Origin: Octopus vulgaris
Taxonomy: Eukaryota
Assembly (NCBI GenBank): GCA_951406725.2
Contig: OX597842.1
Coordinates: 2,418,001 to 2,482,000 of the forward strand
Direction of reading: 5' to 3'
DNA: 64,000 nt
Shown here: positions 7,550 to 52,454 of the stretch, in pieces
How the letters are laid out: every line of letters begins with the position of its first letter
How positions within the stretch are numbered: position 1 is the first letter of the stretch
Translations under genes and position numbers: made by a program
The notes under the pieces: generated by a model
Seen by the model: only the letters and a program-made list of their open reading frames with translations
The model's database searches: none
Told to the model about the DNA's origin: nothing

Positions 7550-8023
7550 CAAGTGGCACCAGTATGCTGGAAATAGCTGCCAGAAGATGTCTACAACATA
7601 AATTTTCATTGATGCACATTCATTGAAATCGGGAATGTGCAGAAATTCTAAGCCCTCATACAGATAATGAAAAGAATAACAAATTGAAAAACCAGACATA
7701 CCCGTATTGTCACAAATTCAAACTTTGTGAAAATGTCACTTAGTTCTCATCAGTGAGTTTTACTGACCCAAAGGTTGGCATTAAAAATGGTCATTGCACA
7801 CTTTGTTGAGATGGGCAGTTTCTATGACCCATGGATCAGTAAGAATCGCTGAGGATAACTAAGTGGAATTTTCACAAAGTTTGAAATCGTGACAATACAA
7901 GTACGTCTGGCTTTTCAATTCACGATTCTTTTCATTATTGGTATTTCAATTAATTTGTATCAGTGGAAATTTGTGGTTGTAGTCATCTTCTGGCTGCTAT
8001 TTTCAGCATGCTGATGCCACTTG
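7550..8023. repeat. Diverged foldback inverted repeat (about 200-bp arms)
   Basis: CAAGTGGCACCAGTATGCTGGAAATAGC versus GCTATTTTCAGCATGCTGATGCCACTTG; inner arms also align. Confidence 0.8.
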
Positions 8024-8355
8024 TAGTACCCTTCATTATTAATTAATAATTTTTTATCTTATGGTATTACCTTGATCATCATTTGTACATGCTATACCAC
8101 TTGATATTATTGTAGACAATATATCCTCAAGTCAACTTTCATCAATACATATCTTCTACAACTTAATAACATAATACAGAACACTACTAACCTTTCAATT
8201 AATACCACTAACTCCCATACATCCCTTACACCATTTCACATTACAATTCTATATCTACCCTAATTGCACCAAATTCAGAACTACTTACCTCCCTTACACA
8301 TAATCGTTTTACTCAGGGACTAGTAGACCTGACACTGTTCATTAATCAGTGTGCA

Positions 8356-8401
8356 TTCAAAGCAATGATTAGTAAATTTATGAAACCAGTATGCTTTTGA
8401 A
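8356..8401 (+). ncRNA. Degenerate type-I hammerhead motif in a Penelope-like remnant
   Basis: Stem I AAAGCA/TGCTTT, eroded core ATGATTA, stem II GTAAATTTAT, GAAA-CCAG-TA. Confidence 0.45.
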
Positions 8402-8609
8402 TCTCTTTAACAATTCACAATAAGGACTTTTATTACTTTTATTCCTACCTCAGTTCATCTAATTGTATATATATCTATCGTTACTTTTCATAAAAAGCCT
8501 TTACTTGTTTTGATTTCTAATGTGCAGTTTCGCTTATTTTTCTTCTTACTTTCCTCTTACATTTCCATATGTACTTTCTATTTTCTTTTTGTAACATATT
8601 TCTATTATA

Positions 8610-8890
8610 TGCCCAGTGGTTAGGGCAGCAGACTCGCAGTTGTAGGATCGCGGTTTCAATTCCCAGACCGGACATTGTGAGTGTTTCTTGAGCGAAAACA
8701 CCTAAAGCTCCATGAGGCTCTGGCAGGGGGTGGTGGCAATCCCTGCTATACTCATTCGCCACAACTTTCTCTCACTCTTTCTTCTGTTGGCCTGCTTGCT
8801 TAGCCAGTGGGTGGCGTCATTTGAAGGTTAAAACAATGCGAAGCACATTGTGACCAGTGATGTGTAACAACATCTGCTAGCCTGGTCCGT
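8610..8890 (+). mobile_element. tRNA-derived SINE (family D)
   Basis: GCCCAGTGGTTAG A-box and GGTTTCAATTCCC B-box. Confidence 0.65.
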
Positions 8891-9067
8891 CATATATATA
8901 TATATATATATATAAGAGATAATGGTGTCATTGAGACCCAAAGGTGTCAGGTAATGCTGAATAAGTGCTATAGATAGACCATAGTTAAGTTCCAGATTCT
9001 GTGATTATGCGAATAAAGGATTTAACATTGGTTCTATATCAGCGTGTGTATATAAGAATTTTTTGCT

Positions 9068-9186
9068 TAATAAGATAAAAAACCAAGGCTGTAAAGATAT
9101 TAGAGCATTTATAGATAGGAGGTCTATCAGACCTTCTATCTATAAATGCTCTAATATCTATACAGCCTTGGTTTTTTATCTTATTA
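9068..9186. repeat. Near-perfect palindrome (about 118 bp) next to (TA)n
   Basis: TAATAAGATAAAAAACCAAGGCTG ... CAGCCTTGGTTTTTTATCTTATTA with a loop of about 3 nt. Confidence 0.9.
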
Positions 9187-9260
9187 CACAAAACATTTAT
9201 ATATATATATATATATATATATATATATATATATATATATATATATATATATATATATAT

Positions 9261-9423
9261 TTATTTAAAAGCAGCAGAAAATTCAACAAAACCTGTTACT
9301 GAGTTTCACGTTCCTGTTCGCCGGACAGTTTTGTTAAAAAATTTTTTAACAAAACTGTCCGACGAACGGGAACGTGAAACTCCGAGTAACAGGTTTTGTT
9401 GAATTTCTGCTGCTTTTAAATAA
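9261..9423. mobile_element. Palindromic Penelope-like remnant with a hammerhead in each arm
   Basis: About 80-bp arms centred near 9341; HHR on + at 9348-9400 and a degraded mirror copy on -. Confidence 0.7.
9348..9400 (+). ncRNA. Type-I hammerhead ribozyme (CCGACGA core variant)
   Basis: AAAACTGT-CCGACGA-ACG GGAA CGT-GAAA-CTC C GAG-TA-ACAGGTTTT; predicted cut after A9388. Confidence 0.7.
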
Positions 9424-49761: not shown

Positions 49762-50180
49762 GAAAATTTAAATCTAGATATAACAAGCATCTTTTGGGTT
49801 TTAGATACGAGGCATTCAACGACCCTTTTGGCTTTAATATGGAAACTTGAAGACAAAGGGACCAATTTTGATATCTTGATCTAATTGACCTATGATCAAA
49901 GATGTTCAAGCTGTGATGTAGGAGTGGCTGTGTGGTAAGTAGCTTGCTTACCAACCACATGGTTCCGGGTTCAGTCCCACTATTGATCGTATCAATTGGC
50001 CAGAATGGGAATAAAAACCTTCAAAAGTAGTAATTATTATTAAAATTATAATTTAGGGTATCTAAAAGATACCACCATGCTGGAAATAGCAGTCAAAACT
50101 TGACTCTAAAATCCTCTCTAAATCCAGACCCTGTTTTAATGGGTGAAAAAAAATGTTCAGTGTGTTCGCTTGGAAGACTC

Positions 50181-50610
50181 TCATCATCATCATCATCATC
50201 GTTTAACGTCCATTTTCCATGCTAGCATGGGTTGGACGGTTCAACAGGGGTCTGGGAAGCCAGAAGGCTGCACCAGGCCCAGTTTGATCTGGCAGTGTTT
50301 CTACAGCTGGATGCCCTTCCTAATGCCAACCACTACAAGAGTGTAGTGGGTGCTTTTTATGTGCCACCTGCACAAGTGCCAGACGAGTCTGGCAAATAGC
50401 CACGATCGGATGGTGCTTTTTACATGCCACCGGCACGGGGGCCAGACGAGGCTGGCAACGGCCACAATCGGATGATGCTTTTTATGTGCCACCGGCACGG
50501 AGGCCAGTGGAGGCGGCGCTAGCAATGGCTTCATTCGGATGGTTCTCTTATGTGCCACTGGCACTGGTATCACAGCTACAATTTCCATTGATGTTGATCG
50601 ATTTCGATCT
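50181..50610 (-). mobile_element. Retroposon family C with internal tandem units
   Basis: (CAT)n tail plus repeated GGTGCTTTTTATGTGCCACCGGCACGG units. Confidence 0.7.
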
Positions 50611-51291
50611 ATTAAAATCACTTGAGAACCTCCAACGTTGTGGTGCACCAGAGCACTGTATACAATAATTTCATTATCATTATTATTATCATTATTATTA
50701 TTATTAAATAGCCTCCACCCAGCTGAACAGAATATTTCCATTCAACTTTTATTAAATCCATATAAGCACAATTGACTTGTCTACATTGGTCGATACTTTT
50801 GAATCATCAACATTTTCAATTTATTTTGCCCTCAGCCTTCCTTGAAAGTTAATGTGACACATCGAATATGTAAATTCAAGGAACAAGATTTTTTTCTTTA
50901 TGTCCACATTCCAAAGAATAATATCTTGTTGGAATTCAAAAGTAAACCACTTGGCACTTAGTGAACCATTAACATCTGGTTTATGTCTGCCTCCCATTGA
51001 ATTACTCTAACATTGGTTATCTCCCTTCTCTTTTTCCTTCTTATCTTCATCTTCACAAGCATCTCTTGTTCAGATGTTATTTACTCAAAAAAAAAGATCA
51101 ACTGACAAATGGTCTTTGCTTTTCAGGTTGATAAATGGCAGAAGAAATTCTTATTTTGACCAGGAAATACTGAGTAGTTATTTGCAAGATTTGTGGTTTT
51201 CAATTTAAGATTATCTTTACTCTCTCTTGGCTGATCGAGTGCTTCTCTACTTATTGAAACATTATCGCATCATATATATATATATATATAT

Positions 51292-51426
51292 AACGGGAAG
51301 CTTTATGAAAATAAACAAAAGACGAAGGCAGGTGGAATACAAACAAACAAATGTATTAGTATGGCGCTCAGGAATATAAATAAAAGAAGTCTTTTACGTT
51401 TCGAGCCTACACTCTTCAACAGAAAG
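51292..51426 (-). mobile_element. Penelope-like terminal remnant with minimal HHR motif (longer copy at 52491-52680)
   Basis: Reverse complement reads CTTT-CTGTTGAA-GAGT GTAG GCTC-GAAA-CG-TA-AAAG; same family as 16676. Confidence 0.6.
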
Positions 51427-51532
51427 TATATATGTATATATATACTCTTTTACTTGTTTCAGTCATTTGACTGCGGCCATGCTGGAGCACCGCCTTTAGT
51501 CGAGCAATATATACTGTCAATCTATATATATA

Positions 51533-51924
51533 TTAGATTGACAGTATACAACCATTATATCGCTCCACCACCGTACACCTCTCTACGAGAGATTTAGAAA
51601 CTCAATATTTCTTATTTTGATAATCAGTGAATAGACTTCACTGACTATAGATATATACAGATACGAAGTCCAGACAGATATCGCCAGCTGACCGGTGTCT
51701 GCTACTCTAGGCCGATGAAGGACAATGATCCTGAAACACGGTGTCCCTAGATGCAGTTCCGGCGGTTGGGGGTGTTTGTCTCCCCTTCATATGTGTATAT
51801 AAGGACACAGGATAAAATGTGTCGAAGCTGTAAGGAGGCGTTCGATGCCTCCTAGGGCTATATAACGGTGGTGTACCCCCTACTGTCACGTTCTTGTTAG
51901 ATTGACAGTATACAACCATTATAT
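51533..51924 (+). mobile_element. Retrozyme-like / Penelope pLTR-like monomer (364-bp period)
   Basis: 28-bp direct repeat TTAGATTGACAGTATACAACCATTATAT at 51533 and 51897; internal intact HHR; short inverted copy at 51510-51524. Confidence 0.7.
51706..51751 (+). ncRNA. Type-I hammerhead ribozyme
   Basis: TCTAGG-CCGATGA-AGGA CAATGA TCCT-GAAA-CAC G GTG-TC-CCTAGA; all three helices pair; predicted cut after C51745. Confidence 0.82.
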
Positions 51925-52228
51925 ATATATATTTATATATAAGTAATGTTCATTGCCACATCAGTATGGCTGTTCCATAGGATTCGGTGTTACTACCTTT
52001 TTTAACCCCAGGAGGATGCCTCCTCCAGCTGGGTATTAATACAGGTGACAAACATTACTTCTCAGTAGAGTTACGACTTTCATCTCTTATAGAGATTTTC
52101 TAACTAACTACTTTGCTTGTTATTTATATATGTATATATATATATAATAATAAATATTAGGGAATAAATCCAAATTTACAGGGAAAAAATCAGATTTAGG
52201 ATTAAATCCAATTTTATAGTAAAATATT

Positions 52229-52454
52229 ATATAATATTAATTCGAGACAAAACCACTATTTTGCAAAACAAACAAGGAAAGACTTAATCAATACATAAAA
52301 TTTTAATAAAAAGTAAAAAAACACCACTACAATTGTTTCATGAAACAATTGTAGTGGCGTTTTTTTTTACTTTTTATTAAAATTTTATGTATTGATTAAG
52401 TCTTTCCTTGTTTGTTTTGCAAAATAGTGGTTTTGTCTCGAATTAATATTATAT
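52229..52454. mobile_element. Near-perfect approx. 225-bp palindrome with the 3' half of a hammerhead at its apex
   Basis: Centre TTTCA|TGAAA (52340/52341) followed by CAATTG-TA; left flank related to 27860-27950. Confidence 0.75.

Follow-up and report, generated by a model that had tools for sequence, protein, structure and literature searches.

The present analysis concerns short palindromic repeats in the window, a stretch of 64,000 nucleotides of Octopus vulgaris (contig OX597842.1, positions 2,418,001 to 2,482,000), which lies on contig C29 of a searched genome of 2.8 Gb in 227 contigs. With a probability of roughly three in four, these repeats and their relatives are short head-to-head insertions of many unrelated hammerhead repeat families, made by reverse transcriptase (RT) primed in an RNA leader and running off its end, with subsequent mirroring of the product. 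The evidence that carries this reading consists of family membership, outward polarity, an apex of variable position, a tail on one side, the order hammerhead, tail and open reading frame (ORF), a sharp 5′ limit of short copies (the wall) and, in one family, intron loss. There is, in addition, an RNA intermediate with sense processing in one family, a hard template end in two families, and usually a single template type per insertion.

The original prediction, drawn from the letters of the window, had listed eight inverted repeats (at 7550, 9261, 14699, 17103, 24350, 33076, 45944 and 52229) as products of one integration mechanism of Penelope-like elements (PLEs). Self-BLAST of the window recovered all eight at these places, and they represent eight different repeat families whose hammerhead stems are wholly unlike one another; families are named here by window position, with 9049 and 16875 added. 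A PLE origin with one shared mechanism agrees with ORFs for RT and a GIY-YIG-type domain, mostly (TA)n flanks and spliced copies, but a new class, as had also been proposed, is not supported, since head-to-head PLE copies and opposite-strand hammerhead pairs are already in print.

Orientation, tails and apexes

All eight window elements have their 3′ ends outward, and polarity was counted genome-wide because palindromes can only point in or out and the cases in the window may have been selected. The 45944 family was counted through an exact 26-mer with 2,090 genome matches; among the first 100 of these, neighbours within 15 kb were head-to-head in 36 cases, tail-to-tail in 3 and on the same strand in 3 (p=4e-8), at spacings of 41 bp to 10 kb. 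For the 52229 family, which has 184 spliced and 369 unspliced exact matches, the first 100 of either kind gave head-to-head counts of 17:0 and 24:0 (41:0 together), so that the predicted polarity extends beyond the window. The accompanying statement that the plus-strand motif lies in the right arm is true, but it says the same as head-to-head and is not a second fact. Of 36 pairs, 32 had a tail on one arm and not on the other, none had two tails and 4 had no tail, by exact match; tails do run outward as predicted, but usually from one arm alone, which in the window is the left one at 14699, 45944 and 52229.

Copies occur solo, in tandem or head-to-head, and the apex differs at most loci. The 5′-truncated copies in tandem or head-to-head inverted arrangement are those known from endonuclease-bearing (EN+) PLEs, and the flanks, mostly (TA)n, are the insertion sites of Hydra-clade PLEs; such flanks mask target duplications in most hammerhead elements. 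It is very hard to credit that the repeats are instead miniature inverted-repeat transposable elements (MITEs), or other palindromic non-autonomous units, amplified whole with hammerheads as captured passengers. Some apex junctions do recur exactly (an AGCT overlap, 12 arms), and the window does hold one true MITE at 48961-49761, but apex and arm length range from tens of bp up to kb, copies also occur singly and in tandem, and the one-sided tail, the mostly (TA)n flanks, the intron loss and the continuity with RT ORFs all speak against it, in line with the original prediction, which had called the elements pseudo-MITEs. The hammerhead families have neither fixed termini nor uniform length, and in the window the control MITE alone has these, together with 8-bp target duplications.

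Polarity and hammerhead content have to be kept apart. In an unbiased genome sample of 59 palindromes, 5 had a core, all outward and none inward, while 16 belonged to the hammerhead families of the window, 15 of them outward and one a nested pair; the 3′-half motif, with 17 outward and 10 inward among the 59, had no power as a test. Outward polarity holds, but the statement that all palindromes carry hammerheads does not, and the universal rule that had been put forward fails both on the 5 of 59 and on the true MITE within the window. Near-perfect head-to-head palindromes of 5.7-6.7 kb with arm identities of 97-99% persist in the assembly (L153 896-7627, L155 and L156).

Splicing in the 52229 family

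Long copies of the 52229 family (L112, L118, L122) contain a GT-AG intron of 1,026-1,115 bp with its acceptor 9 nt before stem I. Short copies are spliced on both arms, with a precise junction of exons 1 and 2; two sequence variants show this, and for each of them unspliced copies exist too. Spliced pairs have a median gap of 23 bp, with 14 of 17 within 46 bp, and unspliced pairs have a median gap of 2,530 bp (range 510-9,099 bp), none being closer than 510 bp. None of 27 pairs on contigs C1-C3 mixed spliced with unspliced arms, and at 8 of the 9 loci compared (10 rows) both arms had the same loop II variant. The intron-free short copies show that palindromes of this family come from spliced RNA and, since the short pairs are spliced, the template was processed as sense RNA. 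The copy in the window is cut too far 3′ to reveal its splice state. One insertion (L116/L126, G000:C28:21329136-21329520) holds three variants of the hammerhead region of this family, which suggests template switches.

Position of the 5′ wall

Copies were anchored on the tail, so that their 5′ ends were not preselected, using the first 70 of 1,250 tail matches for the 45944 family and the first 60 of 570 for the 9261 family. Ends of the 45944 family fell at 67-79 nt in 26 copies, at 80-182 nt in 2 and below 67 nt in 7, while 35 copies were long, i.e. known only to be at least 183 nt, where the reference copy differs. The peak, with 11 ends at 76 nt, is the first base of stem I, and the per-base end rate at 67-79 nt was about 33-fold above the rest of 10-182 nt (p=2e-21). 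In the 9261 family 57 of 60 ends lay at 81 nt or less, 23 of them at 66-81 nt, with an end rate at the wall about 9-fold above elsewhere. The 52229 wall lies about 40 nt 5′ of the core at TCACTT, 10 of 12 spliced records ending no more than 11 nt 3′ of TCACTT. In the 33076 family the wall is at a tRNA-like head, over 100 nt away from the core: an A-box-like head is reached in 13 of 30 loci, and the sequence that they share breaks off within about 10 nt of it (by eye). In these alignments short copies stop at a sharp wall that matches the predicted 5′ end of the RNA and not the cleavage site.

Two further features stand at the 45944 wall. There is a TATAAA 29 nt ahead of it, and a non-genomic G, where the genome has T, precedes it in all 13 informative arms (those that reach the wall without native or overlap context), 7 of which the partner arm does not explain. 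A G copied from the cap fits this extra base, and so does a copy of 1-3 bases from stem I. Both the 45944 and 14699 families have AG at the wall, and a search there for a hidden short first exon found no matching donor.

Random 5′ truncation with inversion, in which RT drops off early and the hammerhead lies near the apex since the repeat is short, is quite improbable. It would suit the wide scatter of ends that the 9049 family and the 9261 copies shorter than 66 nt show, and the general PLE pattern in print (Craig 2021), but it does not predict the 33-fold and 9-fold peaks or the lack of any unspliced 52229 pair under 510 bp, and is already contradicted for three families.

A less remote, though still unlikely, explanation keeps the PLE stubs and lets the ribozyme make the wall, either because 5′-to-3′ decay halts at stem I or because RT stalls or snaps back on the helices. 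The 45944 and 9261 walls do coincide with the outer edge of stem I, there is a stem-I-mediated junction in L049, and the 9049 and 16875 apexes of the window lie at predicted cleavage sites. A stall, though, would be expected at the 3′ foot of the helix and not after its 5′ strand, neither the 45944 nor the 9261 family has an excess of ends at the cleavage site, the 52229 wall is well 5′ of the core, and that of 33076 is at an RNA polymerase III (Pol III)-type head. The original prediction had RT stopping near the ribozyme; that the ribozyme is what stops it is not supported, as walls lie at or 5′ of the outer edge of stem I or away from the core altogether, the 9049 family has none, and many palindromes have no hammerhead. 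Trimming to stem I stays a live rival for the 45944 and 9261 families. Of the palindromes left out of the original prediction, those at 9049 and 16875 belong to hammerhead families and have the apex 3′ of the core, and the stub at 27789 has no core.

Two apexes in the window (9127 and about 16936) lie at or within 2 nt of the predicted cleavage site, with no clear family-wide peak. A peak of ends at that site, which they had suggested, was rejected: it is absent from the tail-anchored sets (0 of 70 ends, or 0 in 884 nt at risk, for 45944; 6 in 539 against a background of 22 in 2,076 for 9261), and a micro-hairpin confounds the 9049 family.

Probable mechanism

Leader-primed run-off could proceed as follows. 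According to the literature the GIY-YIG domain would nick AT-rich DNA, and two internal RT starts would bound the tail. The wall would be the transcription start; priming inside the mRNA leader would yield a run-off cDNA of about 70-200 nt and so the short copies, and priming in a downstream unspliced repeat would yield the kb-long ones. The hammerhead would be near the apex because it is near the start of the RNA. For the second arm, the source may be the same RNA or the cDNA made from it, and the route either fold-back or the joining of two cDNA ends at micro-palindromes (AGCT, CATG); the present loci do not separate the two, and L116/L126 shows that two templates are possible.

In long terminal repeat (LTR) retroelements, cDNA synthesis is primed close to the RNA 5′ end and soon runs off, giving a short strong-stop product. 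We lean slightly towards a PLE counterpart, in which the protein would prime on the leader of its own spliced, capped mRNA and run off at the cap to leave a mirrored stub, and in which priming on the unspliced repeat would give long intron-bearing copies. Unlike the LTR product, the PLE stub would have neither tRNA primer nor integrase and, going by the literature, would be primed on nicked target DNA, and it would be mirrored and fixed in place. If true, strong-stop-like priming would account together for the palindromes and the tail, for introns being kept with no need of an antisense template, and for the MITE-looking hammerhead hairpins in their thousands, and the apexes of such hairpins would map PLE transcription starts in any genome.

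Several observations weigh against leader-primed run-off by PLEs or blunt the evidence for it. An ORF could be tied to only two of the eight families, with none linked for the other six; three long 52229 copies had none in some 400 nt of sequence ahead of exon 1; and Pfam and PDB sequence searches gave no match to the RT frame of L157. The 9261-family list holds one tail-to-tail pair, and at one locus (L116/L126) the arms differ in variant. At the walls, 12 of the 60 ends of the 9261 family (1-11 nt) may be alignment failures, the 45944 and 9261 walls coincide with the outermost pair of stem I, which exonuclease trimming would explain just as well, and stem I may have served as template for the extra G, with AGG in 3 of the 7 arms. 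Spliced 52229 records L107 and L109 run beyond the wall, no wall exists in the 9049 family, whose 30 ends are distributed over 2 to 200 nt, and the 14699 wall (11 of 25 ends within 7 nt) is biased by the query start. Finally, minimum-energy folds of the leaders mostly do not form the hammerhead.

Hammerhead motifs and elements of the window

The hammerheads here are predicted motifs, found by a type I descriptor that was relaxed after the sequence was read so that it also accepts CCGANGA as core and an additional base next to stem II. It gave six cores in the window (+9359, +14766, -24485, +46010, -45999 and +51712), compared with a mean of 0.07 and a maximum of 1 in block dinucleotide shuffles (n=100), and 19 matches in genome samples (820 kb, as 82 ten-kb pieces at fixed positions) compared with 0 on the reversed sequence. 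A hammerhead or half of one had been claimed for each of the eight elements. Four pass the descriptor directly, and in family alignments the genomic families of the other four have a complete core with stems I-III, but the window copies of those four have decayed or are truncated within the motif. Decay has affected 7550 and 17103; at 33076 stem III is only 2 bp long and the plus strand reads AAAA in place of GAAA, and 52229 keeps the 3′ half alone. The 7550 and 17103 cases had been called weak, which is true of the decayed window copies, but they are real cases, since their families hold complete cores. With Rfam, neither the window nor 10 family loci gave a hammerhead that reached the gathering score, and none was among the 150 of 408 E-value matches listed.

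Constant across families are the core and an extra base after A9, and several have a palindromic stem III. These features are as described for PLE hammerheads, which are of type I with an extra base after A9, a palindromic stem III and a U3-A8 variant (Cervera and de la Pena 2014, PMC4209133), and by our descriptor and family alignments a type I hammerhead lies in the terminal repeat, as in PLEs. Several families differ from the hammerheads in the available part of that paper in combining a 3-4 bp stem III with a CCGANGA core. This core (U4 to C) was seen in four unrelated families (9359, 14766, 51712 and the 9049 family), and the 16875 family (e.g. L255) has, by eye, a TTGAAAA core with U3:A8 covariation, a short stem I and an AATT stem III.

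7550..8023: old head-to-head stub with arm identity of about 70% and decayed cores at -7753 and +7849; the majority sequence of the family forms a complete type I hammerhead
8916..9205: stub omitted by the original prediction, palindrome 9049-9205 with left-arm tail; family hammerhead with CCGATGA core immediately 5′ of the apex, which is the predicted cleavage site
9260..9499: head-to-head stub with complete hammerhead +9359 (CCGACGA core) and mutated mirror -9324; right-arm tail 9425-9499; apex at the 5′ wall of the 9261 family
14630..14850: Hydra-type PLE stub with complete hammerhead +14766 and the 3′ half in the left arm; left-arm tail; (TA)n flanking both sides
16875..17095: variable-apex stub, likewise omitted; hammerhead-like motif of the family (U3:A8 core) 5′ of the apex, read by eye
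17103..17465: old stub with decayed cores -17190 and +17288; family majority sequence a complete hammerhead with long stem II
24322..24763: old stub with complete hammerhead -24485 and damaged +24625; palindromic stem III; left-arm tail
27789..27950: stub similar, by eye, to the 52229 family in its 3′ end and tail; apex 3′ of the hammerhead, hence no core within
33076..33727: head-to-head pair of a unit like a short interspersed element (SINE), with A/B-box head, (AAT)n and minimal hammerhead, cores -33170 and +33633; head at about 33523-33590, minus strand; left arm split by an unrelated SINE (about 33292-33522)
45869..46072: young stub of a Hydra-clade PLE with complete hammerheads -45999 and +46010; stem I begins both arms; left-arm tail 45869-45937; (TA)n flanking both sides
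48961..49761: control, a true MITE without hammerhead, its ends fixed (GGATC) and its target duplicated over 8 bp in several copies
51510..51925, plus strand: extra hammerhead, core +51712 between two short direct repeats; small inverted copy on the 5′ side; layout like a pseudo-LTR
52146..52455: young stub with apex within the hammerhead at 52340, leaving only GAAAC-stem III per arm; left-arm tail

Link to Penelope-like frames

Long copies of the 45944 family (L157, L151, L154) carry RT and endonuclease frames. Those of L157 and L151 have the DKT, RWR, CxCX5C, CxxC and CxH motifs that are Hydra marks in Craig 2021, also read in two homologues, and homologues of the 45944-family frames carry RVT_1 or GIY-YIG. 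In a tandem copy the order is hammerhead, tail, an ATG about 50 nt on, ORF, about 2.9 kb of non-coding sequence and again hammerhead. The 14699 family is continuous with a related frame (L131, L135) that has a weak GIY-YIG match (E=0.02). A Neptune-like reading of the ORF was dropped against the clade description in Craig 2021. The case for a PLE origin of the other six families is purely anatomical.

The Hydra clade, found in molluscs among others, is described as having a C-terminal endonuclease, DKT, an RWK-like motif, a CxCX5C linker, CxxC, CxH, hammerheads and (TA)n insertion, in elements that have a single ORF and are generally short, under 3 kb (Craig 2021, PMC8557442). The 45944 element shares these motifs, the hammerheads and the (TA)n insertion, and is assigned by motifs, not a tree. 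Compared with the clade as the available text presents it, the 45944 unit is larger, at about 5.4 kb with about 2.9 kb of non-coding 3′ sequence, and has a frameshift in the copies examined. Supplements to the same paper list Hydra families as well as hammerheads and may include the present ones.

Two further frames were encountered. One, on L152 (4752-7448, minus strand), is an 899-codon Penelope-type RT-endonuclease frame nested within a 45944-family palindrome; the RT had only a weak match to a Penelope-type ORF on L152 (E=6e-4). The other, on L158 (5869-7791, plus strand), is a Hydra-type frame in which a long Asn-rich insert separates the RT thumb from the endonuclease, resembling the N-rich inserts described in Adineta Penelopes.

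Relation to known elements

The elements and their polarity are known in kind, and the stubs are a variant of published PLE insertion products. Head-to-head inverted PLE copies with palindromic junctions have been reported and self-priming proposed for them (Arkhipova 2013, PMC3846280). That paper argued for an antisense template as a requirement of head-to-head self-priming, and the same template would account for retained introns; the short 52229 pairs depart from this in being spliced, i.e. in having a sense-processed template. An inverted truncated PLE copy with one-sided tail and (TA)n targets is also described (Craig 2021, PMC8557442), and opposite-strand hammerhead pairs 100-700 bp apart are known from Schistosoma (PMC4209133). 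Head-to-head copies, junction palindromes, a tail at one end and (TA)n targets are shared with EN+ PLE insertions; unlike those in the published texts available, the insertions here are mostly stubs of 130-500 bp that lack an ORF and have a sharp 5′ wall. The Penelope intron of Drosophila virilis lies 46 nt after the element start (PMC2377424) and ends at helix I (PMC4209133).

For the Anolis PLE Poseidon, in vitro work found that two internal RT starts bound the tail, that both DNA strands are cut and extended, that uncleaved RNA is the main template and that product length follows the RNA 5′ end (Frangieh 2024, PMC11167929). Poseidon belongs to a different clade, and the available part of that paper does not treat inverted copies or genomic 5′ walls. 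Non-LTR retrozymes are short non-coding hammerhead units derived from PLE repeats (Li 2026, 10.64898/2026.07.22.740005); as far as the accessible text describes them they form tandem arrays, while the units here are mostly head-to-head or solo, with one trimer in the 33076 family (L012). Nothing was found in mainly open texts, with Repbase and supplements outside their scope, on 5′ walls, spliced short palindromes or the mislabelling of PLE stubs as MITEs.

Formation of PLE inverted repeats and the keeping of introns are stated open questions (Arkhipova 2013; Craig 2021). The 52229 family, with spliced short and unspliced long palindromes, and the base-sharp walls make both directly testable. 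There is also a warning for annotation, as many short hairpin repeats in (TA)n are retroelement stubs, with 16 of the 59 sampled palindromes in window families.

Other observations

Schistosoma SM-alpha is a hammerhead SINE-like unit. The 33076 unit has a Pol III-type head, an (AAT)n linker and a minimal hammerhead 3′ part, with 1,441 first-look candidates, and it inserts in PLE fashion, solo, as a tandem trimer (L012) or head-to-head with the apex at the head (L003, L004, L012 and L013). An A-box-like motif was present in 13 of 30 loci and a B-box-like one in 17 of 30, close to the consensus in PMC8969392; ARAGORN found no tRNA in 6 loci of the family. We regard the unit as a candidate PLE-mobilised SINE, for which no partner was found. 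Common SINEs in general seem octopus-like.

The MITE at 48961-49761 is abundant, and its interior holds (TAACCC)-like repeats. At 41297-41488 there is a GC-rich foldback of 190 bp adjoining (TA)n, with CTGATG near its centre. A host exon at 12162-12281 (plus strand) encodes a sperm-tail PG-rich (SHIPPO) repeat (Pfam E=8e-4), and for this reason the stubs nearby likely lie in introns.

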